The notes beneath the pieces were generated by a model. The model did no database searches and was not told where the DNA came from. It worked only from the letters and a program-made list of their open reading frames with translations. A stretch of DNA of 22,290 nt. Source: a virus (Duplodnaviria; Heunggongvirae; Uroviricota; Caudoviricetes). The stretch spans positions 1 to 22,290 of the IMG/VR virus record IMGVR_UViG_2563366854_000001. The stretch is one strand, 5' to 3'. Below, in pieces: positions 4,427 to 20,815 of the stretch (position 1 is the stretch's first letter; each line of letters opens with the position of its first letter). The translations under genes were made by a program, and so were the position numbers.

Positions 4427-4930
4427 ATGGACAAATTTGATAGAAGTGCACAAAGGCAGTTGTTACAAATACTGTATGATGCTCATCCTTATGAAATTTC
4501 TGATGATGCGTTGCAGTCTGTTCGTGACGCATTTGGAGATGATAATGTCCTAATTTCGAACTTAATTTATCTCGAAGAACATGGCTTGATTAAGAATGCT
4601 CTTGATTATTACTTGGATGGCATAAATATAAATATTCCTGAATTAAGAATTACTAAAGATGGAATTGATTTCATTCGTGATGATGGAGGTCTTAAAGCTA
4701 TTCTTGGGATTATGACAATAAGATTGCATGATGAGACTCTCTGTGAACTTGAACGTATCATCAATAGTTCTACTTCTGCCACGACTGAAGATAAGAAGAA
4801 ATTACTCTCTCAGCTTCGAACGCTTCCTGCCGACGCCATAAAACAGCTGACGATTCGATTACTTGGTCAGGGGCTTGACCATCTGCCGGACGTATTTCAC
4901 GTAATTCAAAAAGCCCTCCATTCTCTGTAA
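4427..4930 (+). CDS. Hypothetical protein, putative N-terminal winged-helix domain (AT-rich accessory gene)
   Basis: 167-aa ORF starting at ATG 4427; AT-rich codon usage unlike flanking genes; motifs LIYLEEHGLIKN and ITKDGIDFI resemble wHTH recognition helix and wing. Confidence 0.6.
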   Translation: MDKFDRSAQRQLLQILYDAHPYEISDDALQSVRDAFGDDNVLISNLIYLEEHGLIKNALDYYLDGININIPELRITKDGIDFIRDDGGLKAILGIMTIRLHDETLCELERIINSSTSATTEDKKKLLSQLRTLPADAIKQLTIRLLGQGLDHLPDVFHVIQKALHSL

Positions 4931-5453: not shown

Positions 5454-6530
5454 TTACTTTGTAAGTTCTAGAACTCGTTGAGCCAGCCCTTTAAATTGTT
5501 CGTTAAAGGCGTCTCTGCTTGATTTCATTGTATTTAAGGCATGCCCAAATTGCCCTGAATCGCGAATTTGCTGATCACTGATGGAGAAAACAGGTGTCGC
5601 TAGTTGTTGGCTTATTGCGATTAATGAGTTGAAATCGGAAATATGCGCAAGATCATAGGCTGATAAATCTCCACTGACTGTTGTTTTGTTAATTGCATGT
5701 TGCACTTTATCTCGTGGAATTATGCAGGTAATTTTTTCTAGATTTGGCACTAAGATCGAATCAACAGCATCACGGATAGCTGCCATCCATTTTTCGAAAG
5801 ATTTTACAGGTGCTCCTTTACGCGGCCTGTATCTCTGCTGAATCATACCTAGAAACTGCGGTGCATTTTTAATTGATTGTGAAGAGTTACCATCATTATT
5901 TTCTTTAAATAATGCTAATTCTTTGTGCCAGCGAGGTATATTTTTTGAGAGAGAGCGAATTGCTTGCCAGCAAAAAAAGTCTGGAGCTACAGGTACGATA
6001 AAATAGTCACTTGACATGAGAACTACTTCATTTAAACCTCCAACATTAGGGCTGAGATCATAAAGAATGTAATCAATATTATTCTTCATGGCGATTAGCT
6101 GTAATATTTTTGGCAGGTTCCCTGGTATATTTCTTGTAGCAGGAATACCAGCAGCAATTTTTAGAGAAACACTTATCTGTGAATCTAAGTCCGAAACATC
6201 TAAATGTCCGGGAAGAAGCAGAAGGTTTTCATGCAGTGTAGGGTGTAATTTTCCCGTTTCTTTTTCAAGGTATGCTTCAGGTTGTCCGCCATTAATCAAA
6301 TATTCTACAATAGGTCCAAGAGTTAAGTTATCTCTGCTAGAATAAAAAGAATCTAAACCCTCATCAATCTTTTCATAGCCAAGAACCATTCCTGTTAGAT
6401 TACATTGCGAATCAAGGTCAACCATCAATACTTTCTTGCCTTCATCCGCAAGTGCCCATCCAAGATTGAAGGTTGTTGTGGTTTTACTTACCCCACCTTT
6501 ATGATTAAAAAAACAAATTGATTTTGTCAT
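5454..6530 (-). CDS. ParA/MinD-family P-loop ATPase with long C-terminal extension (orphan; no ParB partner seen)
   Basis: 358-aa ORF; deviant Walker A NHKGGVSKTTT near the N-terminus, VLMVDLDSQCNLT motif, Walker-B-like ILYDLSPNVGG; AGGA upstream of the ATG; AT-rich; same strand as and directly downstream of the cI-like repressor. Confidence 0.8.
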   Translation of the reverse strand: MTKSICFFNHKGGVSKTTTTFNLGWALADEGKKVLMVDLDSQCNLTGMVLGYEKIDEGLDSFYSSRDNLTLGPIVEYLINGGQPEAYLEKETGKLHPTLHENLLLLPGHLDVSDLDSQISVSLKIAAGIPATRNIPGNLPKILQLIAMKNNIDYILYDLSPNVGGLNEVVLMSSDYFIVPVAPDFFCWQAIRSLSKNIPRWHKELALFKENNDGNSSQSIKNAPQFLGMIQQRYRPRKGAPVKSFEKWMAAIRDAVDSILVPNLEKITCIIPRDKVQHAINKTTVSGDLSAYDLAHISDFNSLIAISQQLATPVFSISDQQIRDSGQFGHALNTMKSSRDAFNEQFKGLAQRVLELTK

Positions 6531-6700: not shown

Positions 6701-7462
6701 CTAAAGCCGGTTGTATTTAATTGATTCGTGTATCAATGCTTTGCCCATAACATAAAGTTGATCTTGGGACTTCTCATCAATGTACCATTTCTCATAGGCT
6801 GGATTATCCGAAAGAACGGCGAGTTTGTTGCCTTGCATTTGTAGACGTTTAACGTGGAACGTCTTACCATAAACGAAAGAGTAAACACCATCAGTTTGGA
6901 AGTTGCGAACAGAAATGTCGACAAACAGTCGATCTCCGGAAACTAGAGTAGGGGACATGCTGTCGCCATTTACAGTCATAACTTTAATATCATCTTGAGA
7001 ACGATTACCGAAAAGAGAACGGGCATGCTCTGTTGTGAACTCAATGGCGTAGAGCACATCAACATAGTCTGAAAGCATATAGGTTCCAGGTCCTGCGCTA
7101 ACGCTAAGATCCAAAACTTCTATCCTGTATACATCGGGTTTTGTTGGATTGGGGATGCTTGCCATTTCCTTACATCCTTCTCTCTCGCCAACACCATATT
7201 CTAAATATGAAGCTGATACCCCCAGAGCCAATGCAAGTTTATTCATGACAGAGGCACGAGGCTTCGCAGCGCCGATTGTGTATCGCCGCGCCATTTCATA
7301 TGTAACGCCCACAAGACTTTTGAGTTGGGTGACAGAAATTCCCTTGTTTGTCATTAGCTCGTTTAGTCTCTTGGCGAAATCTGGATACTTCTGTTCTTCT
7401 ACCATAGGTAGAAGGTTACTCGCATCACATACGCTAGTCATTTCTATTTTAAGTAGTTGCAT
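6701..7462 (-). CDS. cI-like prophage repressor (XRE-type HTH plus S24 LexA-like peptidase domain)
   Basis: HTH LMTNKGISVTQLKSLVGVTYEMARRY; Ala-Gly cleavage-site-like SAGPG; S24 motifs VNGDSMSPTL and KRL. Start is ambiguous (7462, 7441 or 7405) with no strong SD, so it may be leaderless. Confidence 0.85.
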   Translation of the reverse strand: MQLLKIEMTSVCDASNLLPMVEEQKYPDFAKRLNELMTNKGISVTQLKSLVGVTYEMARRYTIGAAKPRASVMNKLALALGVSASYLEYGVGEREGCKEMASIPNPTKPDVYRIEVLDLSVSAGPGTYMLSDYVDVLYAIEFTTEHARSLFGNRSQDDIKVMTVNGDSMSPTLVSGDRLFVDISVRNFQTDGVYSFVYGKTFHVKRLQMQGNKLAVLSDNPAYEKWYIDEKSQDQLYVMGKALIHESIKYNRL

Positions 7463-12675: not shown

Positions 12676-13059
12676 ATGCGTGATATTCAGATGGTTCTTG
12701 AACGTTGGGGAGCGTGGGCGGCTAATAATCATGAAGATGTGGCCTGGTCGTCCATTGCCGCCGGTTTTAAGGGATTAATTCCTTCAAAAGTAAAATCTCG
12801 CCCGCATTGTTGTGACGATGACGCGATGATCATTTGCGGGTGCATGGCCCGTCTGAAAAAGAACAACAGCGATTTACACGATTTATTAGTAGATTATTAT
12901 GTATGTGGTATGACATTCATGTCACTGGCAAGTAAGCATTGCTGCTCGGATGGTTATATCGGGAAAAGGTTACAGAAGGCTGAGGGCATAATTGAAGGGA
13001 TGTTAATGGCATTAGATATCCGGTTAGATATGGATATCGTTGCTAATAATTCTAATTGA
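12676..13059 (+). CDS. Q: Late-gene antiterminator Q
   Basis: Start at [22 protein letters not shown] (GGAGA-N7-ATG); Q-family-like sequence with Cys-rich zinc-binding region; sits upstream of a hairpin terminator and the lysis cassette. Confidence 0.8.
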
Positions 13060-13197
13060 TATGCAATTGTTTACTAAAAGTTATTAAAAATGGGGCGTGG
13101 AAACGCCCCCAAAATAAAGGGTAATATATAACAGAAGGTTTATATAGTAAGAAGCAAGGTAGTGCTTCTAAAGGAAGTGGCTTGAGGGCTCCACTTA

Positions 13198-13245
13198 TAT
13201 GTTGCGGAGGCAAAGCCTCCCGCAACATATCTTTTTCGTAAGTCA
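13198..13245 (+). terminator. Strong rho-independent terminator (tR'-like) downstream of Q
   Basis: ATATGTTGCGGAGGC-AAA-GCCTCCCGCAACATAT followed by CTTTTTCG. A second hairpin GGGGCGT-GGAA-ACGCCCC at 13092-13109 has a U-tract on the opposite strand and may terminate the porin transcript. Confidence 0.6.
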
Positions 13246-13247
13246 GA

Positions 13248-14330
13248 TTAGAACTGATAAACCAGACCTACAGCGACGATGTCGTCGGTATCAATACCAG
13301 CTGTTTTGGTAAACTTACTATCGTCAATTAAGTTGATTTTGTAATCAACAAAAGTAGACATGTTTTTATTAAAGTAGTAAGTAGCACCGACATCGACATA
13401 CTTGACTAAGTCTCGGTCACCATGAACACCAAGGTCTTTACCTTTTGACTGAAGGTAAGCAACAGATGGGCGCAGACCGAAGTCAAACTGATATTGTGCT
13501 ACTGCTTCAAAGTTTTGTGCTTTGTTTGCAATATGGTTATTACCAAAAACGGTCATATTCTGAGTTTCAGAATATGTGGTAGCCAGATAGATATTGTTCG
13601 CATCATATTTCAGGCCTGCAGCCCATACTTCCGCATTTTTGCCGGAGGCATTGAATTTGCTCTTACCATAGGCGACCTGACCGTCAGTGCGATCTGATTT
13701 AGCATAGGTTGCACCCACGCCGAATCCTTCATACTCATAAGTAGTGGAGAAACCGAAACCATCACCATTGGCTTCAGTTACGTCAGTGCGGTCATTTTTA
13801 CCCTGATACTGAGCAGCAAAGTTCAGGCCATCGACCAGACCAAAGAAGTCGTTGTTACGATAAGTTGCAACACCAGTAGTGCGACCAGTCATGAACACAT
13901 CTGTTTGGGTCCAGGTATCACCACCGAATTCTGGCAGAACGTCAGTCCACGCACCGATGTCGTATGCTACACCGTAGTTACGGCCGTAATCGATGGAGCC
14001 GTAATCACCAAATTTCAGGCCTGCAAATGCAAGACGGGTTTTGTCTTTGGAAGAACCTTGAGATTCAGCACGGTTGCCTTTGAATTCATATTCCCACTGA
14101 CCGAAACCAGTCAGTTGATCGTTGATTTGGGTTTCACCTTTGAAGCCAAGACGGGCATAAGTAGTATCACCATCATCTGCATCATTAGAGGAGAAGTAGT
14201 GCTTGGCATTAACTTTCCCGTATAGATCCAGCTTGTTACTGTCTTTATTATAAATTTCAGCTGCCTGAGCAGACATCGCCATCAGTACTGATGCAGCTAC
14301 AGCAGAAATTGCCACTGTTAATTTTTTCAT
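13248..14330 (-). CDS. nmpC: Outer-membrane general porin, OmpC/NmpC family (lysogenic-conversion moron)
   Basis: Start at internal Met [23 protein letters not shown] (signal peptide); porin hallmarks AEIYNKD...LDLYGKV and C-terminal GLVYQF; lies between Q and the holin, as nmpC does in DLP12-type prophages. Confidence 0.85.
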
Positions 14331-14756
14331 TGTACGCCCTTTTTTTGAACTATTATTAAAAAATGATGTCACTGCGCGATAAATATTCATCTAATCAATG
14401 TGATTATTTCAAGATGTAAGTTTTAGTTTCTCATTTAATTTGTGAAGTAGATCTCTATTTTTATCTGAACCTTTTCTATCTAATCCTATTCATGGCTCTT
14501 GTCTGAACAAAAATAAATCTATTAGCTAATTTATATTAATGGCACTTATTTATAAGTGCTCTATAATTCTTTAGCTTAATTTAAACAAACTAAAAATAAC
14601 ATCGGAAATTATTAACTGATTATTTGTTGAAGTTTTCTTATGTATTTGTGGTGGTGTTTTGAACACTCGGTGGCATTCTCACAAATATCATTTAGTAGTT
14701 TACGTACGTAAAAAATTGGTTATGCTGTTAAGAGTGGTTACTTCGTCACACAGCTT

Positions 14757-14790
14757 AAACCCGCCGTCGAGCGGGTTTTTCCATTTTTTG
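14757..14790 (+). terminator. Hairpin with U-tract upstream of the lysis cassette
   Basis: AAACCCGC-CGTCGA-GCGGGTTTTT followed by CCATTTTTT. Confidence 0.4.
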
Positions 14791-14918: not shown

Positions 14919-15134
14919 ATGAAATCCATGGATAAGTTAACAACGGGTGTCGCCTATGGCACCTCAGCAGGTAGTGCCGGTTACTGGTTTTTACAGCTGC
15001 TCGATAAAGTCACGCCCTCACAGTGGGCAGCAATAGGTGTGCTGGGTAGCCTGGTATTTGGCCTGCTGACGTACCTGACAAACCTTTATTTCAAGATTAA
15101 AGAAGATAAGCGCAAGGCTGCGAGAGGTGAATAA
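14919..15134 (+). CDS. Class II holin, phage-21 S-type pinholin with dual-start motif
   Basis: 71 aa, [29 protein letters not shown]...; Met1-Lys-Ser-Met4 dual start; two TM segments; charged C-terminus. Confidence 0.9.
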
Positions 15135-15631
15135 TGCCTCCATCATTACGAAAAGCCGTTGCTGCTGCTATTGGTGGCGGAGCAATTGCTATAGCATCAG
15201 TGTTAATCACTGGCCCAAGTGGTAACGATGGTCTGGAAGGTGTCAGCTACATACCATACAAAGATATTGTTGGTGTATGGACTGTATGTCACGGGCATAC
15301 AGGAAAAGACATCATGCTCGGTAAAACGTATACCAAAGCAGAATGCAAAGCCCTCCTGAATAAAGACCTTGCCACGGTCGCCAGACAAATTAACCCGTAC
15401 ATCAAAGTCGATATACCGGAAACAATGCGCGGCGCTCTTTACTCATTCGTTTACAACGTGGGTGCTGGCAATTTCAGAACATCGACGCTTCTTCGCAAAA
15501 TAAACCAGGGCGATATCAAAGGCGCATGTGATCAGCTACGTCGCTGGACATATGCTGGCGGTAAGCAATGGAAAGGTCTCATGACTCGTCGTGAGATTGA
15601 GCGTGAAATCTGTTTGTGGGGTCAGCAATGA
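15134..15631 (+). CDS. SAR endolysin (lysozyme with N-terminal signal-anchor-release domain)
   Basis: 165 aa; Gly/Ala-rich weakly hydrophobic N-terminus ([20 protein letters not shown]) followed by a lysozyme-like domain; TAATG coupling to the holin. Confidence 0.9.
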
Positions 15632-16089
15632 ACAGAGTAACCGCGATTATCTCCGCTCTGGTTATCTGCATCATCGTCTGCCTGTCATGGGCTGTTAATC
15701 ATTACCGTGATAACGCCATTACCTACAAAGCCCAGCGCGACAAAAATGCCAGAGAACTGAAGCTGGCGAACGCGGCAATTACTGACATGCAGATGCGTCA
15801 GCGTGATGTTGCTGCGCTCGATGCAAAATACACGAAGGAGTTAGCTGATGCGAAAGCTGAAAATGATGCTCTGCGTGATGATGTTGCCGCTGGTCGTCGT
15901 CGGTTGCACATCAAAGCAGTCTGTCAGTCAGTGCGTGAAGCCACCACCGCCTCCGGCGTGGATAATGCAGCCTCCCCCCGACTGGCAGACACCGCTGAAC
16001 GGGATTATTTCACCCTCAGAGAGAGGCTGATCACTATGCAAAAACAACTGGAAGGAACCCAGAAGTATATTAATGAGCAGTGCAGATAG
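15628..16089 (+). CDS. Rz-type i-spanin
   Basis: ATGA overlap with the endolysin stop; N-terminal TM helix followed by coiled-coil-like periplasmic domain. Confidence 0.8.
15848..16030 (+). CDS. Rz1-type o-spanin lipoprotein, embedded in Rz in the +1 frame
   Basis: 60-aa ORF wholly inside Rz; lipobox LVVVGC; proline-rich mature region ([15 protein letters not shown]). Confidence 0.75.
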
Positions 16090-16120: not shown

Positions 16121-16414
16121 TTATTGTGAGCAATACACACGCGCTTCCAGCGGAGTATAAATGCCTAAAGTAATAAAACCGAGAAATCCATTTACGAATG
16201 TTTGCTGGGTTTCTGTTTTAACAACATTTTCTGCGCCGCCACAAATTTTGGCTGCATCAACAGTTTTCTCCTGTCCAATTCCCGAAACGAAGAAATGATG
16301 GGTGATGGTTTCCTTTGGTGTTACTGCTGTCGGTTTGTTTCCAACAGTAAACGTCTGTTGAGCACATCCTGTAATAAGCATTGCCAGAGCGGCAGAAAAC
16401 AACATTTTTTTCAT
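16121..16414 (-). CDS. bor: Bor-family outer-membrane lipoprotein (serum-resistance moron)
   Basis: Start at MKKMLFSAALAMLITGCAQQTF (lipobox); AGGA upstream; C-terminus ...GIYTPLEARVYCSQ matches lambda Bor closely. Confidence 0.9.
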   Translation of the reverse strand: MKKMLFSAALAMLITGCAQQTFTVGNKPTAVTPKETITHHFFVSGIGQEKTVDAAKICGGAENVVKTETQQTFVNGFLGFITLGIYTPLEARVYCSQ

Positions 16415-17358: not shown

Positions 17359-17904
17359 ATGGAAGTCAACAAAAAGCAGCTGGCTGACATTTTCGGTGCG
17401 AGTATCCGTACCATTCAGAACTGGCAGGAACAGGGAATGCCCGTTCTGCGAGGCGGTGGCAAGGGTAATGAGGTGCTTTATGACTCTGCCGCCGTCATAA
17501 AATGGTATGCCGAAAGGGATGCTGAAATTGAGAACGAAAAGCTGCGCCGGGAGGTTGAAGAACTGCGGCAGGCCAGCGAGGCAGATCTCCAGCCAGGAAC
17601 TATTGAGTACGAACGCCATCGACTTACGCGTGCGCAGGCCGACGCACAGGAACTGAAGAATGCCAGAGACTCCGCTGAAGTGGTGGAAACCGCATTCTGT
17701 ACTTTCGTGCTGTCGCGGATCGCAGGTGAAATTGCCAGTATTCTCGACGGGATCCCCCTGTCGGTGCAGCGGCGTTTTCCGGAACTGGAAAACCGACATG
17801 TTGATTTCCTGAAACGGGATATCATCAAAGCCATGAACAAAGCAGCCGCGCTGGATGAACTGATACCGGGGTTGCTGAGTGAATATATCGAACAGTCAGG
17901 TTAA
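17359..17904 (+). CDS. nu1: Terminase small subunit Nu1
   Basis: 181 aa, MEVNKKQLADIFGASIRTIQNWQEQGMPV...; essentially lambda Nu1. Confidence 0.95.
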   Translation: MEVNKKQLADIFGASIRTIQNWQEQGMPVLRGGGKGNEVLYDSAAVIKWYAERDAEIENEKLRREVEELRQASEADLQPGTIEYERHRLTRAQADAQELKNARDSAEVVETAFCTFVLSRIAGEIASILDGIPLSVQRRFPELENRHVDFLKRDIIKAMNKAAALDELIPGLLSEYIEQSG

Positions 17905-19936
17905 CAGGCTGCGGCATTTTGTCCGCGCCGGGCTTCGCTCACTGTTCAGGCCGGAGCCACAGACCGCCGTTGAATGGGCGGATGCCAGTTACTATCTCCC
18001 GAAAGAATCCGCATACCAGGAAGGGCGCTGGGAAACACTGCCCTTTCAGCGGGCCATCATGAATGCGATGGGCAGTGACTACATCCGCGAGGTGAATGTG
18101 GTGAAGTCTGCCCGTGTTGGTTATTCCAAAATGCTGCTGGGTGTTTATGCCTACTTCATAGAGCATAAGCAGCGCAACACCCTTATCTGGTTGCCGACGG
18201 ATGGTGATGCCGAGAACTTTATGAAAACCCACGTTGAGCCGACTATTCGTGATATTCCGTCGCTGCTGGCGCTGGCCCCGTGGTATGGCAAAAAGCACCG
18301 GGATAACACGCTCACCATGAAGCGTTTCACCAATGGGCGTGGCTTCTGGTGCCTGGGCGGTAAAGCGGCAAAAAACTACCGTGAAAAGTCAGTGGATGTG
18401 GCGGGTTATGATGAACTTGCTGCCTTTGATGAGGATATTGAACAGGAAGGCTCTCCGACGTTCCTGGGCGATAAGCGTATTGAAGGCTCGGTCTGGCCAA
18501 AGTCCATCCGTGGCTCCACGCCCAAAGTGAGAGGCACCTGCCAGATTGAGCGTGCAGCCAGTGAATCCCCGCATTTTATGCGTTTTCATGTTGCCTGCCC
18601 GCACTGTGGGGAGGAGCAGTACCTTAAATTTGGCGATAAAGAGACGCCGTTTGGCCTCAAATGGACGCCGGATGATCCCTCCAGCGTGTTTTATCTCTGC
18701 GAGCATAATGCCTGCGTCATCCGTCAGCAGGAGCTGGACTTTACTGATGCCCGTTATATCTGCGAAAAGACCGGGATCTGGACCCGTGATGGCATTCTCT
18801 GGTTTTCGTCATCCGGTGAAGAGATTGAGCCACCGGACAGTGTGACCTTTCACATCTGGACGGCGTACAGCCCGTTCACCACCTGGGTGCAGATTGTCAA
18901 AGACTGGATGAAGACGAAAGGGGATACGGGAAAACGTAAAACTTTCGTAAACACCACGCTCGGTGAGACGTGGGAGGCGAAAATCGGCGAACGTCCGGAT
19001 GCTGAAGTGATGGCAGAGCGGAAAGAGCATTATTCAGCGCCCGTTCCTGACCGTGTGGCTTACCTGACCGCCGGTATCGACTCCCAGCTGGACCGCTACG
19101 AAATGCGAGTATGGGGATGGGGGCCGGGTGAGGAAAGCTGGCTGATTGACCGGCAGATTATTATGGGCCGCCACGATGATGAACAGACGCTGCTGCGTGT
19201 GGATGAGGCCATCAATAAAACCTATACCCGCCGGAATGGTGCAGAAATGTCGGTATCCCGTATCTGCTGGGATACTGGCGGGATTGACCCGACCATTGTG
19301 TATGAACGCTCGAAAAAGCATGGGCTGTTCCGGGTGATCCCCATTAAAGGGGCATCCGTTTACGGAAAGCCGGTGGCCAGCATGCCACGTAAGCGAAACA
19401 AAAACGGGGTTTACCTTACCGAAATCGGTACGGATACCGCGAAAGAGCAGATTTATAACCGCTTCACACTGACGCCGGAAGGGGATGAACCGCTTCCCGG
19501 TGCCGTTCACTTCCCGAATAACCCGGATATTTTTGATCTGACCGAAGCGCAGCAGCTGACTGCTGAAGAGCAGGTCGAAAAATGGGGGGATGGCAGGAAA
19601 AAAATACTGTGGGACAGCAAAAAGCGACGCAATGAGGCGCTCGACTGCTTCGTTTATGCGCTGGCGGCGCTGCGCATCAGTATTTCCCGCTGGCAGCCGT
19701 ACTGGATGCACTGGAGAAGCATGACACCGGGGCGACGTTTTTTGATGGTCGCCCCGCTGTTTTTGATGAGGCGGATTTTCCGGCAGTTGCCGTTTATCTC
19801 ACCGGCGCTGAATACACGGGCGAAGAGCTGGACAGCGATACCTGGCAGGCGGAGCTGCATATCGAAGTTTTCCTGCCTGCTCAGGTGCCGGATTCAGAGC
19901 TGGATGCGTGGATGGAGTCCCGGATTTATCCGGTGA
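17879..19936 (+). pseudogene. A: Terminase large subunit A, 3'-truncated and fused out of frame to U
   Basis: Lambda-A-like through ...ALAALRISISRWQ (to about 19696), then continues as junk in the wrong frame of U-derived DNA until a stop at 19936. Confidence 0.85.
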
Positions 19937-20067
19937 TGAGTGATATCCCGGCACTGTCAGATTTGATCACCAGTATGGTGGCCAGCGGCTATGACTACCG
20001 GCGCGACGATGATGCGGGCCTGTGGAGTTCAGCCGATCTGACTTATGTCATTACCTATGAAATGTGA
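19697..20067 (+). pseudogene. U: Tail terminator U, 5'-truncated remnant with no own start
   Basis: Frame-1 translation from 19696 reads AVLDALEKHDTGATFFDGRPAVFDEADFP...LTYVITYEM*, lambda U minus its first few codons. Confidence 0.8.
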
Positions 20068-20074
20068 GGACGCT

Positions 20075-20815
20075 ATGCCTGTACCAAATCCTGTAATGCC
20101 GGTGAAAGGTGCCGGGACCACCCTGTGGGTTTATAAGGGGAGCGGTGACCCTTATGCGAATCCGCTTTCAGACGTTGACTGGTCGCGTCTTGCAAAAGTT
20201 AAAGACCTGACGCCCGGCGAACTGACCGCTGAGTCCTATGACGACAGCTATCTCGATGATGAAGATGCAGACTGGACTGCGACCGGGCAGGGGCAGAAAT
20301 CTGCCGGAGATACCAGCTTCACGCTGGCGTGGATGCCCGGAGAGCAGGGGCAGCAGGCGCTGCTGGCGTGGTTTAATGAAGGTGATACCCGTGCCTATAA
20401 AATCCGCTTCCCGAACGGCACGGTCGATGTGTTCCGTGGCTGGGTCAGCAGTATCGGTAAGGCGGTGACGGCGAAGGAAGTGATTACCCGCACGGTGAAG
20501 ATCACCAATGTGGGACGTCCGTCGATGGCAGAAGATCGCAGCACGGTGACGGCGACAACCGGCATGACGGTGACACCCGCCAGTGCTTCCGTAGTGAAAG
20601 GGCAGAGCACCACGCTGACCGTGGCATTCCAGCCGGAGGGCGCAACCGACAAGAGCTTCCGTGCGGTGTCTGCGGATAAAACAAAAGCCACCGTGTCGGT
20701 CAGTGGTATGACCATCACCGTGAACGGCGTTGCTGCAGGCAAGGTCAACATTCCGGTTGTATCCGGTAATGGTGAGTTTGCTGCGGTTGCAGAAATCACC
20801 GTCACCGCCAGTTAA
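20075..20815 (+). CDS. V: Major tail protein V
   Basis: Start at [22 protein letters not shown] (GAGGA upstream); near-identical to lambda V, including the C-terminal Ig-like region. Confidence 0.9.

Follow-up and report, generated by a model that had tools for sequence, protein, structure and literature searches.

An lc/nmpC-type porin gene between the antiterminator gene and the lysis cassette of a lambdoid prophage at the DLP12 site

Phage PA-2 is the classical case of lysogenic conversion by a phage-borne porin, and the PA-2 model includes exclusion of other phages at their receptor. OmpC is the receptor of both phage 434 and PA-2. The porin of PA-2, Lc (GenBank J02580.1), is a protein of 365 aa. 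In Escherichia coli K-12, the corresponding porin NmpC (b0553) is carried by the prophage DLP12, where an IS5 element flanked by a TTAG target duplication splits the gene behind codon 346. The Salmonella enterica porin OmpD belongs to the same group. It is named as a porin of Salmonella and Citrobacter in the source annotations, and it is encoded by a core gene of the chromosome and not by phage cargo. In the literature, ompD is treated as having its E. coli counterpart in nmpC, whose mRNA is a target of the small RNA RybB (PMC3333887). DLP12 also encodes IpeX, a repressor of OmpC, 167 nt long, that arises by processing of the porin transcript (review PMC12197685).

Here we describe a porin gene in a stretch of 22,290 nt of lambdoid prophage DNA (the window) and compare it with these systems. 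The gene and its neighbors are as follows.

13248..14330, minus strand: porin CDS, NmpC/Lc/OmpD-type general porin, 360 aa plus stop (translation, Pfam, NCBIfam, OmpC alignment)
14262..14330, minus strand: signal peptide, 23 codons, followed by AEIYNK (start of the mature-OmpC alignment; sig_peptide annotated on an identical N-terminus in PA-2)
12676..13059, plus strand: antiterminator Q, QuuD type, PF06530, 127 aa (Pfam, NCTC86 annotation, H-19B/P13374 alignment)
14919..16089, plus strand: lysis cassette of phage-21-type holin, endolysin and Rz with embedded Rz1 (Pfam, annotation)

The porin gene and its closest relatives

The open reading frame on the minus strand extended over 13248..14390 (380 aa), and the start ATG at 14330 gives a protein of 360 aa. 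Neither translation of this frame nor its alignment revealed an internal stop or frameshift. The same coordinates are annotated by PGAP in E. coli NCTC86, to which the window was 100% identical over 2.6 kb. The match to the Pfam profile Porin_1 (PF00267) spanned all of its 337 positions (504.7 bits, cut-off 23.7, E = 1.9e-151), which bore out the full-length porin of the preliminary description. Its Sec signal peptide was also recovered: the crystal chains of mature OmpC (residues 1-343) aligned with residues 24-360, and the PA-2 homologue is annotated with 23 codons. The mature N-terminus, AEIYNK, follows the family pattern AE(I/V)YNK.

The product bore every sequence hallmark of an OmpC/OmpF/PhoE general-diffusion porin. 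The PEFGG motif of constriction loop L3 was found at residues 133-137. Among 25 homologues, K39, R60, R99, R150 and D130 were invariant and E134 was nearly so; all six aligned with OmpC, and we take them, from the OmpF and OmpC structures, to be constriction-zone residues. The C-terminus was VGLVYQF, ending in the Phe of the aromatic assembly signal. OmpC, PhoE and OmpF of known structure (2J1N, 2XE2, 1PHO, 2OMF) belong to the same family, and their 16-stranded trimeric β-barrel fold can be expected for the window porin from about 60% identity to these solved proteins. An AlphaFold2 model built from the 25-sequence alignment was poor (mean pLDDT 43.9). The OmpC/PhoE/OmpF group differs from the window porin by indels in putative surface loops, as judged from the OmpC alignment, and by its locus and regulatory DNA.

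The window porin was closer to PA-2 Lc and K-12 NmpC (IS5 removed), with 90.7% protein identity to each, than to any chromosomal E. coli porin (OmpC 62.9%, PhoE 62.5%, OmpF 58.6%). OmpD was its nearest named chromosomal relative (78.9% over the full length), although with different loop sequences. These values agree with the membership of the OmpC/NmpC family that had been proposed. DNA identity was 90.7% between the window and the entire 2.7-kb PA-2 lc record, and the two were collinear. Relative to the S/R/Rz genes, PA-2 lc had the position and orientation of the window gene, and it shared the upstream region with its annotated CRP sites and the 3′ flank. The two proteins had the same signal peptide and were identical over the first 148 residues save one substitution. 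They differed at the loop clusters 182-187, 217-227, 263-267, 303-306 and 335-347, and the genes showed heavy synonymous divergence over their 3′ two-thirds.

Similarly, the window prophage shared much with K-12 DLP12. Their argU/intD attachment sites were 99.3% identical, the Q-porin-lysis-bor block was present in both, and the porin flanks were 95-96% identical. The window prophage retains many more phage genes than DLP12, and its porin frame is uninterrupted. When IS5 and one TTAG copy were removed from K-12 nmpC, a 365-aa frame was restored. Thus, the contrast drawn earlier between the intact frame in the window and the IS-disrupted K-12 copy was correct. The restored K-12 allele was of the Lc-like 365-aa type, unlike the 360-aa allele of the window.

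Isolated lambdoid phages, among them Perceval and ev017, encode an identical protein, and Perceval carries its porin gene in the same layout, between Q and the lysis genes on the opposite strand. Of 5,426 complete E. coli genomes, 2,502 contained the gene with a coverage of at least 80%. The gene is therefore already known, and comparison of the sequences identifies it as an allele of classical lc/nmpC rather than a new gene.

Another reading is that the gene is the host's chromosomal ompC and not phage cargo. The CDS is labeled 'ompC: porin OmpC' by PGAP, and its score of 521 bits lay above the cut-off (484) of the NCBIfam OmpC model, which is of the subfamily type, not an equivalog. However, identity to K-12 OmpC was only 62.9%. 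The gene lies between Q and the holin gene of a prophage at argU and does not adjoin micF, the identical gene occurs in isolated phage genomes, and the region is collinear with PA-2 lc. The genomic context (a prophage, not the ompC-micF locus) already refutes this identity, and we regard it as extremely improbable. The porin gene is extra phage cargo, lodged in a lambdoid prophage at the DLP12 site between its Q gene and its lysis genes.

Position relative to Q and the late promoter

The porin gene lies, as described before, on the opposite strand to its neighbors, with Q and the holin, endolysin and Rz genes on the plus strand, and it is separated from the holin gene by 588 bp. GC content was 43.6% in the porin CDS, 27.1% in its upstream region, 49% in the lysis genes and 48.1% in the whole window; the cassette is unlike the adjacent phage genes in base composition. 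Comparison with phage H-19B delimited the cassette and located the late promoter.

13009..14695, unstranded: porin cassette relative to H-19B, comprising an alternative Q C-terminus, the IpeX region, the porin gene and the porin upstream region (H-19B alignment)
14699..14733, plus strand: putative late promoter pR′, with -35 TTTACG at 14699-14704, -10 TATGCT at 14721-14726 and start at about 14733
14757..14788, plus strand: leader hairpin AAACCCGCCGTCGAGCGGGTTT with T-run, +25..+56 of the pR′ transcript (terminator scan)

Positions 301-633 of H-19B matched 12676-13008 of the window, and positions 720-803 matched 14696-14780. Since these matches flank the cassette on both sides, the 86 nt between them in H-19B correspond to 1,687 nt in the window. 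In H-19B and P13374, both without the porin, Q abuts the pR′ segment. Closer relatives of the window Q without the porin diverged from the window at about 13035. The H-19B Q protein is 144 aa, 17 longer than that of the window, and its last 24 residues are replaced by 7 in the window. We rejected a classification of the window Q as phage-21-like, because PF06530 and the alignments placed it in the H-19B Q family.

Homology linked the segment 14696-14790 to pR′ and its leader in H-19B and Stx phages, and the putative promoter of the window to TTTACG-N16-TATCAT of H-19B. With a start at position 757, GU/AUU of H-19B falls at +173 and the following T-run ends at +258, an exact match to the landmarks mapped in the pR′-tR′ region of Stx phages (PMC7547250). 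The homology places the cassette between Q and pR′ and not within the late transcript. As the cassette also points away from pR′, it lies outside the late operon.

The leader hairpin was conserved in K-12, PA-2, H-19B, P13374 and SfII, and the terminator scan gave no other plus-strand terminator between it and the holin gene. It is a candidate for the tR′ of this phage type. It does not qualify as a tR′ of the Stx type, since the Stx tR′ lies 258 nt from pR′ and the hairpin (14757-14778) occupies +25..+46. We also rejected a pR′ just after Q (about 13098-13148) with a hairpin at 13198-13236 as tR′. That proposal had been based on two promoter-like matches of 8/12, and it was overruled by the H-19B/Stx homology and the +173/+258 landmarks in favor of 14699-14733. 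A promoter at the rejected position would have run late transcription antisense through the porin gene.

The stx cassettes of Stx phages and H-19B are cargo in the same interval between Q and the holin gene, in phages with a homologous pR′ and a Q of the same family. There, the stx genes follow pR′-tR′ on the late strand and depend on antitermination by Q. In contrast, the porin cassette sits on the opposite strand, upstream of pR′, and is thus independent of late transcription.

Regulatory elements upstream and downstream of the porin gene

Putative control elements of the porin gene were found on both of its sides.

14331..14695, minus strand: porin upstream regulatory region, 27.1% GC (composition; 95% identical to K-12, collinear with PA-2)
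14438..14458, minus strand: proximal predicted CRP site, 108-128 nt before the ATG (PA-2 lc annotation; exact 21/21 match)
14733..14753, minus strand: distal 'CRP site' of the PA-2 annotation, equal to +1..+21 of the putative pR′ leader (21/21 match)
14311..14317, minus strand: CAGUGGC, mRNA +14..+20, complementary to the RybB 5′ seed (exact 7-nt match; candidate site)
13086..13252, minus strand: porin 3′ region of about 165 nt, IpeX equivalent, ends approximate (96% identical to K-12 DLP12)
13082..13109, minus strand: intrinsic-terminator-like hairpin GGGGCGTTTCCACGCCCC with T-run (terminator scan; K-12 differs twice in the loop region)
13198..13236, unstranded: long hairpin without mismatches shortly after the porin stop, forming the first stem-loop of the 3′ RNA (sequence, fold)

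The preliminary description had assigned the porin an AT-rich upstream region of its own of about 530 bp. The AT-richness was confirmed (27.1% GC), but the porin's share is only about 365 bp (14331-14695), and part of the remainder is pR′ sequence. With 27% GC the region is a plausible target of H-NS. No convincing sigma-70 promoter for the porin was found by scanning the upstream region; a weak extended -10-like element, TGAAATAAT at 14411-14403, was the only promoter-like element there, and a hand-picked promoter, TTGAAA-N18-GAATAT, failed re-scoring. As the distal CRP site overlaps the pR′ segment, its conservation may reflect pR′ and not CRP. The candidate RybB site was identified by comparison with the RybB sequence. 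A possible MicC target was rejected, as it was a 7-nt match outside the MicC 5′ end.

On the other side of the gene, the 3′ region folded at -53.6 kcal/mol (z = -6.4). It was found in 36 phage records, in all of them beside the porin gene. A search of the window against Rfam gave no hits at the gathering threshold and only chance-level ones at E < 1; the ends of the 3′ region were therefore deduced from the terminator position and the published length. From the published location and length of IpeX and the homology to K-12, this flank seems to correspond to the IpeX region. This conserved 3′ region had been overlooked in the preliminary description. In K-12, IpeX lies downstream of the IS5-broken gene, whereas in the window it would form the 3′ end of an intact porin mRNA. 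The hairpin at 13082..13109 is likely to be the end of the porin/IpeX transcript. The hairpin at 13198..13236 is followed by CTTTTT on the plus strand, and might also act as a plus-strand terminator of read-through from Q.

Selection, expression and possible function

Between the window allele and the K-12 allele, we counted 98 synonymous and 29 non-synonymous codon differences. The latter were confined to amino acids 149-151, 182-187, 217-227, 263-267, 303-306 and 335-347, plus two conservative single changes, and amino acids 271-300 had 14 synonymous differences and none that was non-synonymous. When mapped by the OmpC alignment and by cluster spacing, the non-synonymous changes appear to cluster at surface loops. 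The excess of synonymous differences and this clustering argue for a maintained, functional barrel, and codon comparison indicates that the gene is kept under purifying selection.

It might still be that the porin gene is intact but silent, retained only as a phage passenger or for the sake of IpeX, with the porin itself contributing nothing. The low GC content of the upstream region and the failure to find a good promoter match there would fit such a gene. nmpC of E. coli B is called a 'quiescent porin gene' in the title of a cited work, and nmpC is often disrupted by IS5 or IS1 in laboratory lineages without obvious cost. However, the 98 against 29 codon differences, with the non-synonymous ones gathered at putative loops, point to strong purifying selection on the barrel, and 2,502 of 5,426 complete genomes still have the gene over at least 80% of its length. 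In addition, the gene of Perceval, whose NmpC protein is 100% identical to the window porin, was expressed 10-fold above the local background in an LF82 lysogen (PMC9928086). NmpC protein has also been detected, as a spot in proteomics of extraintestinal clinical E. coli isolates. Weighing both sides, we consider a silent porin very unlikely.

Other published work connects nmpC expression with phenotypes. Excision of IS1 reactivated nmpC and turned its transcription on, and the altered cefotaxime phenotypes were attributed by the authors to a higher drug permeability through NmpC. Heat survival was raised by NmpC expression.

The window porin is a real, undamaged copy of NmpC/Lc, and it is probably functional. 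The reading we prefer, with a probability of about 0.85, is that of an intact lambdoid Lc/NmpC allele encoding an exported channel, which lies with IpeX in a cassette of its own and brings about lysogenic conversion of the outer membrane. The porin would be exported and assembled as a trimeric barrel, giving the lysogen an extra non-specific channel. Since the cassette has its own AT-rich upstream region with a predicted CRP site and a putative terminator of its own, it is expected, also from the literature on identical or near-identical copies, to be transcribed in the lysogen. The 3′ end of the porin transcript would then yield the IpeX small RNA, which would lower the synthesis of OmpC and OmpF. 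In the classical PA-2 model of lysogenic conversion, the host porin would be partly swapped for a phage porin with different loops. Such a swap could alter permeability (for example to β-lactams) and remove or alter the receptor of porin-dependent phages.

The selected function might instead be mainly superinfection exclusion, in which OmpC, the receptor for tips of the 434/PA-2 type and so for those of the carrier phage as well, is lowered or replaced. The variable loops would in that case reflect an arms race with porin-binding phages. Repression of OmpC by IpeX (PMC12197685) and the restriction of allelic differences to putative surface loops are in line with this function. Of about 40 phage records with the porin, at least 18 had a J C-terminus of the 434 type (at least 90% identity); among the 217 other records of a lambda-like J, about 50 had one (odds ratio 2.7, nominal P = 0.006). 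These records depend strongly on one another, since they include duplicates, one collection and mosaic relatives, and the association is therefore weak. Moreover, more than half of the porin carriers have other J tips. We regard superinfection exclusion as the main selected function only tentatively, and as somewhat unlikely. It is compatible with the lysogenic conversion that we prefer.

A further proposal is that the porin and IpeX form a widespread receptor-swap immunity module, with loop alleles matched to tail tips and a CRP-linked co-regulation with pR′. A loop-diverged porin would replace OmpC and so keep permeability while hiding the receptor for tips of the 434/PA-2 type, that of the carrier phage included. 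The cassette stands back to back with pR′, with the distal CRP-like site at +1..+21, and the catabolite state might co-regulate both. This proposal seems to us quite doubtful.

The analysis opens no new question, and its chief value is in correct annotation, as the PGAP label 'ompC' masks a phage-borne NmpC/Lc porin. Nearly half of the complete E. coli genomes carry a phage porin of the NmpC/Lc type besides the real ompC. Published work has linked porins of this type to β-lactam permeability, to survival of heat and, by way of IpeX, to reduced OmpC levels. What is new here is minor and structural: the placement of the cassette between Q and pR′, independent of late transcription, and the allelic differences at putative loops. 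They are useful for the design of deletions and for reading differences in phage receptors and antibiotic uptake among lysogens.

An intact porin of the NmpC/Lc type

We found that the porin gene lies on the strand opposite to Q and the lysis genes, which flank it as the preliminary description had stated:

13248-14390, minus strand: porin open reading frame, with an ATG at 14330 that gives 360 amino acids
12676-13059, plus strand: Q antiterminator (PF06530)
14919-16089, plus strand: phage-21-type holin, endolysin and Rz (Pfam and annotation)

The porin ATG is preceded by AAAGGG. Translation of the 360-aa frame, previously described as intact, revealed no stop codons or frameshifts. Exactly the same coding sequence, WP_000737271.1, is present in the PGAP annotation of E. 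coli NCTC86, the DNA of which was 100% identical to the window over the 2.6 kb queried. The claim of a full-length OmpC/NmpC-family porin also held, and hallmarks of the family are present: the whole Pfam Porin_1 profile is covered (1-337 of 337, E=1.9e-151), residues 24-360 align to residues 1-343 of mature OmpC crystal chains and the C-terminus is ...VYQF. The intact porin is thus confirmed and its interpretation supported. It passed the NCBIfam OmpC subfamily model (521 bits, cut-off 484) and scored below both the PhoE and OmpF equivalog cut-offs. The PGAP gene name 'ompC' is a label at the family level only. The alignments to NmpC, OmpD and OmpC proposed in the preliminary description are included below.

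Identity of related porins to the window porin
Lc porin of phage PA-2: 90.7% (protein)
K-12 NmpC, IS5 removed: 90.7% (protein)
Salmonella OmpD: 78.9%
K-12 OmpC: 62.9%
K-12 PhoE: 62.5%
K-12 OmpF: 58.6%

Window 15700-13022 aligns collinearly, at 90.7% DNA identity, to the entire GenBank record of PA-2 lc (Rz, R, S, spacer, lc and downstream). The porin is phage cargo: homologues occur in 42 phage records, and the identical 360-aa protein is carried by the sequenced lambdoid phages Perceval, ev017, ev207, 2G7b and several PhiR phages. The homologue in P7 (AF503408.1), a P1-like plasmid-prophage, is annotated nmpC at 25534-26646 and is 81% identical. Of the 5,426 complete E. coli genomes surveyed, 2,502 had a copy spanning at least 80% of the coding sequence, and the window allele (at least 99% DNA identity) was found in 1,215 records. 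Considering these identities, phage copies and genome counts, the gene is the well-known lc/nmpC porin in its common intact form, a feature already known and ordinary in E. coli. The sequenced 434B stock of phage 434 (OL657227.1) has an IS5-disrupted K-12-type nmpC at 43214-44254, annotated inside a region of '434 nonhomology'; this copy suggests acquisition from DLP12 in K-12.

In K-12, an IS5 insertion flanked by a TTAG target duplication splits nmpC after codon 346, whereas the window copy is unbroken. Removing IS5 and one TTAG restored a 365-aa frame in K-12. Thus, the contrast originally drawn with the IS-disrupted K-12 copy was correct.

The porin cassette and its prophage

The first gene of the window is intD, which abuts the tRNA-Arg gene argU, the DLP12 attachment site, in both NCTC86 and K-12. 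The window and DLP12 share intD (99.3% identity), the Q-porin-lysis-bor block (91-94%) and nohD; the immunity region, replication genes and nin-type genes are kept in the window and lost from DLP12. The NCTC86 prophage is 99.8% identical elsewhere but has an IS66-family element and ~6 kb of further DNA that are missing from the window; the ~6 kb hold the genes for portal, protease, decoration protein, capsid and head-tail proteins. The deletion region is at 19693-20156, with its junction near 19697, and the large terminase ORF (17879-19936) nearly joins the tail-tube gene, the tail genes running from 20045. Because the head genes are missing, this prophage looks unable to make heads. A second cargo gene, encoding a Bor-family lipoprotein (Iss, increased serum survival, according to PGAP in NCTC86), directly follows Rz at 16121-16414 (minus), on the other strand from the lysis cassette. 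A 167-aa ORF without a Pfam match (4427-4930, plus) and a ParA-family ATPase gene (5454-6530, minus), flanked by the early-left genes on one side and the CI-like repressor (6701-7462) on the other, may be further cargo.

Our initial idea, a late promoter (pR') just after Q with late transcription antisense across the porin, was dropped on the homology to H-19B and other Stx phages. About 300 Stx-type phage records contain a segment homologous (77-79%) to window 14696-14780. The Q proteins of H-19B and P13374 are of the same family as the window Q (~83% identity over residues 1-120), and in both phages the homologous segment starts 16 nt upstream of the stop codon of Q. In H-19B it carries TTTACG-N16-TATCAT. 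With the start set 7 nt downstream, at position 757, a GU/AUU lands precisely at +173, and the T-run that follows ends precisely at +258. In the experimentally mapped Stx-phage pR' transcript, an RNase E site lies at +173 and the 3′ end of the terminator tR' at +258 (PMC7547250). The corresponding window features are:

14699-14704 (-35) and 14721-14726 (-10), start near 14733, plus strand: putative pR', placed by homology to H-19B
14757-14788, plus strand: conserved leader hairpin and T-run downstream of the putative pR' (holin start at 14919)

Relative to H-19B, 1,687 nt of the window (13009-14695) stand in place of 86 nt and contain an alternative Q C-terminus, the IpeX region, the porin and its upstream DNA. 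Given this replacement and the placed pR', the cassette lies between Q and pR', oriented away from pR'. Its junction lies within the 3′ end of the Q gene and accounts for the altered C-terminus: the window Q has 127 aa, 17 fewer than the 144 aa in H-19B and P13374, and 7 residues replace their last 24. The same short Q is found in active phages, e.g. Perceval. The stx genes are located inside the Q-dependent late transcript, whereas the porin cassette is outside it. The same pR'-like segment precedes the holin in Shigella phage SfII, where unrelated opposite-strand genes come before it; the slot between Q and pR' appears to be reused for different cargo. One of these SfII genes (421-1443, minus, of the SfII segment compared) encodes a 340-aa protein without a Pfam match.

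The preliminary description gave the porin an AT-rich upstream region of its own of ~530 bp. Porin and holin are 588 bp apart; the 365 bp adjoining the porin have 27.1% GC, compared with 48.1% for the whole window, and to that extent the description stands, but 14696-14780 belongs to the pR'-homologous segment.

Allele divergence, regulation and the 3′ flank

The first ~90 codons of the porin gene are near-identical to K-12 and PA-2, whereas ~40% of the remaining codons differ from K-12, mostly synonymously. This contrast indicates a recombination mosaic between old alleles inside the gene. Against the K-12 allele, 98 codons carry synonymous differences only and 29 carry non-synonymous ones. 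The non-synonymous differences and all indels fall in six clusters (aa 149-151, 182-187, 217-227, 263-267, 303-306 and 335-347), except two conservative single changes at aa 196 and 205; otherwise, changes between clusters are synonymous only (aa 271-300: 14 synonymous, none non-synonymous). The clusters are spaced by ~40 residues and several match gaps of the OmpC alignment; they probably represent the end of L3 and surface loops L4-L8. An AlphaFold2 model (pLDDT 43.9) was too poor for loop mapping. Judged from codon changes, the barrel is under purifying selection and its exposed loops are variable; the overall synonymous/non-synonymous pattern is unlike that of a decaying gene.

Two CRP sites are annotated in the PA-2 record, and both match the window at 21/21 positions:

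14438-14458, minus strand: proximal predicted CRP site, 108-128 nt before the ATG, within the porin's own region
14733-14753, minus strand: distal predicted CRP site, overlapping +1 to +21 of the putative pR' leader

Considering this overlap, conservation of the distal site may be unrelated to CRP. Promoter and terminator scans of the region found no convincing porin promoter. The best sigma-70-like match (14539-14567, plus; ATGGCA-N17-TATAAT, 10/12) lies inside the AT-rich upstream region, ~130 nt upstream of pR', which it faces. Its -10 is conserved in K-12 and its -35 is not; in DNA this rich in AT, the match may be due to chance. At +14 to +20 of the porin mRNA there is a 7-nt complement to the RybB seed. 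This is consistent with nmpC mRNA being a RybB target (PMC3333887).

The preliminary description overlooked the conserved 3′ flank. A terminator-like hairpin lies on the porin strand:

13109-13092, minus strand: terminator-like hairpin, ~140 nt past the porin stop codon

The ~165 nt from the stop codon to the terminator are 96% identical to K-12, have a predicted fold of -53.6 kcal/mol (z = -6.4 against shuffled controls) and were found in 36 phage records, in every case beside the porin. According to a 2025 review (PMC12197685), the DLP12 RNA IpeX has 167 nt; the porin promoter drives its synthesis within the porin transcript, processing then releases it, and its effect is to lower OmpC. The flank fits the IpeX region by position and length. 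Rfam has no model for IpeX, so its end coordinates are approximate.

Expression and possible host conversion

The nmpC of prophage Perceval, which encodes the identical protein, was transcribed 10-fold above background in an LF82 lysogen (PMC9928086). Clinical isolates have yielded NmpC protein, IS1 excision reactivates nmpC transcription, and altered cefotaxime phenotypes after reactivation were credited by the authors to higher drug permeability through NmpC. Heat survival increased with NmpC expression, and IpeX represses OmpC (PMC12197685). By analogy with these identical or near-identical copies, similar expression and effects would be expected in the window's strain. A phage porin with different loops would partly replace the host porin, as in classical PA-2-type conversion, and this replacement would change permeability and receptor display.

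A J C-terminus of the 434 type (at least 90% identity) occurred in at least 18 of ~40 porin-carrying phage records and in ~50 of 217 other lambda-like J records (odds ratio 2.7, nominal p=0.006, among strongly non-independent records). As OmpC is presumably the receptor for the 434-type tail tip, the association hints faintly at a receptor swap.

The gain here is one of annotation: the porin is NmpC/Lc rather than OmpC and forms a unit with IpeX, in a cassette with defined boundaries and a position placed relative to pR'.
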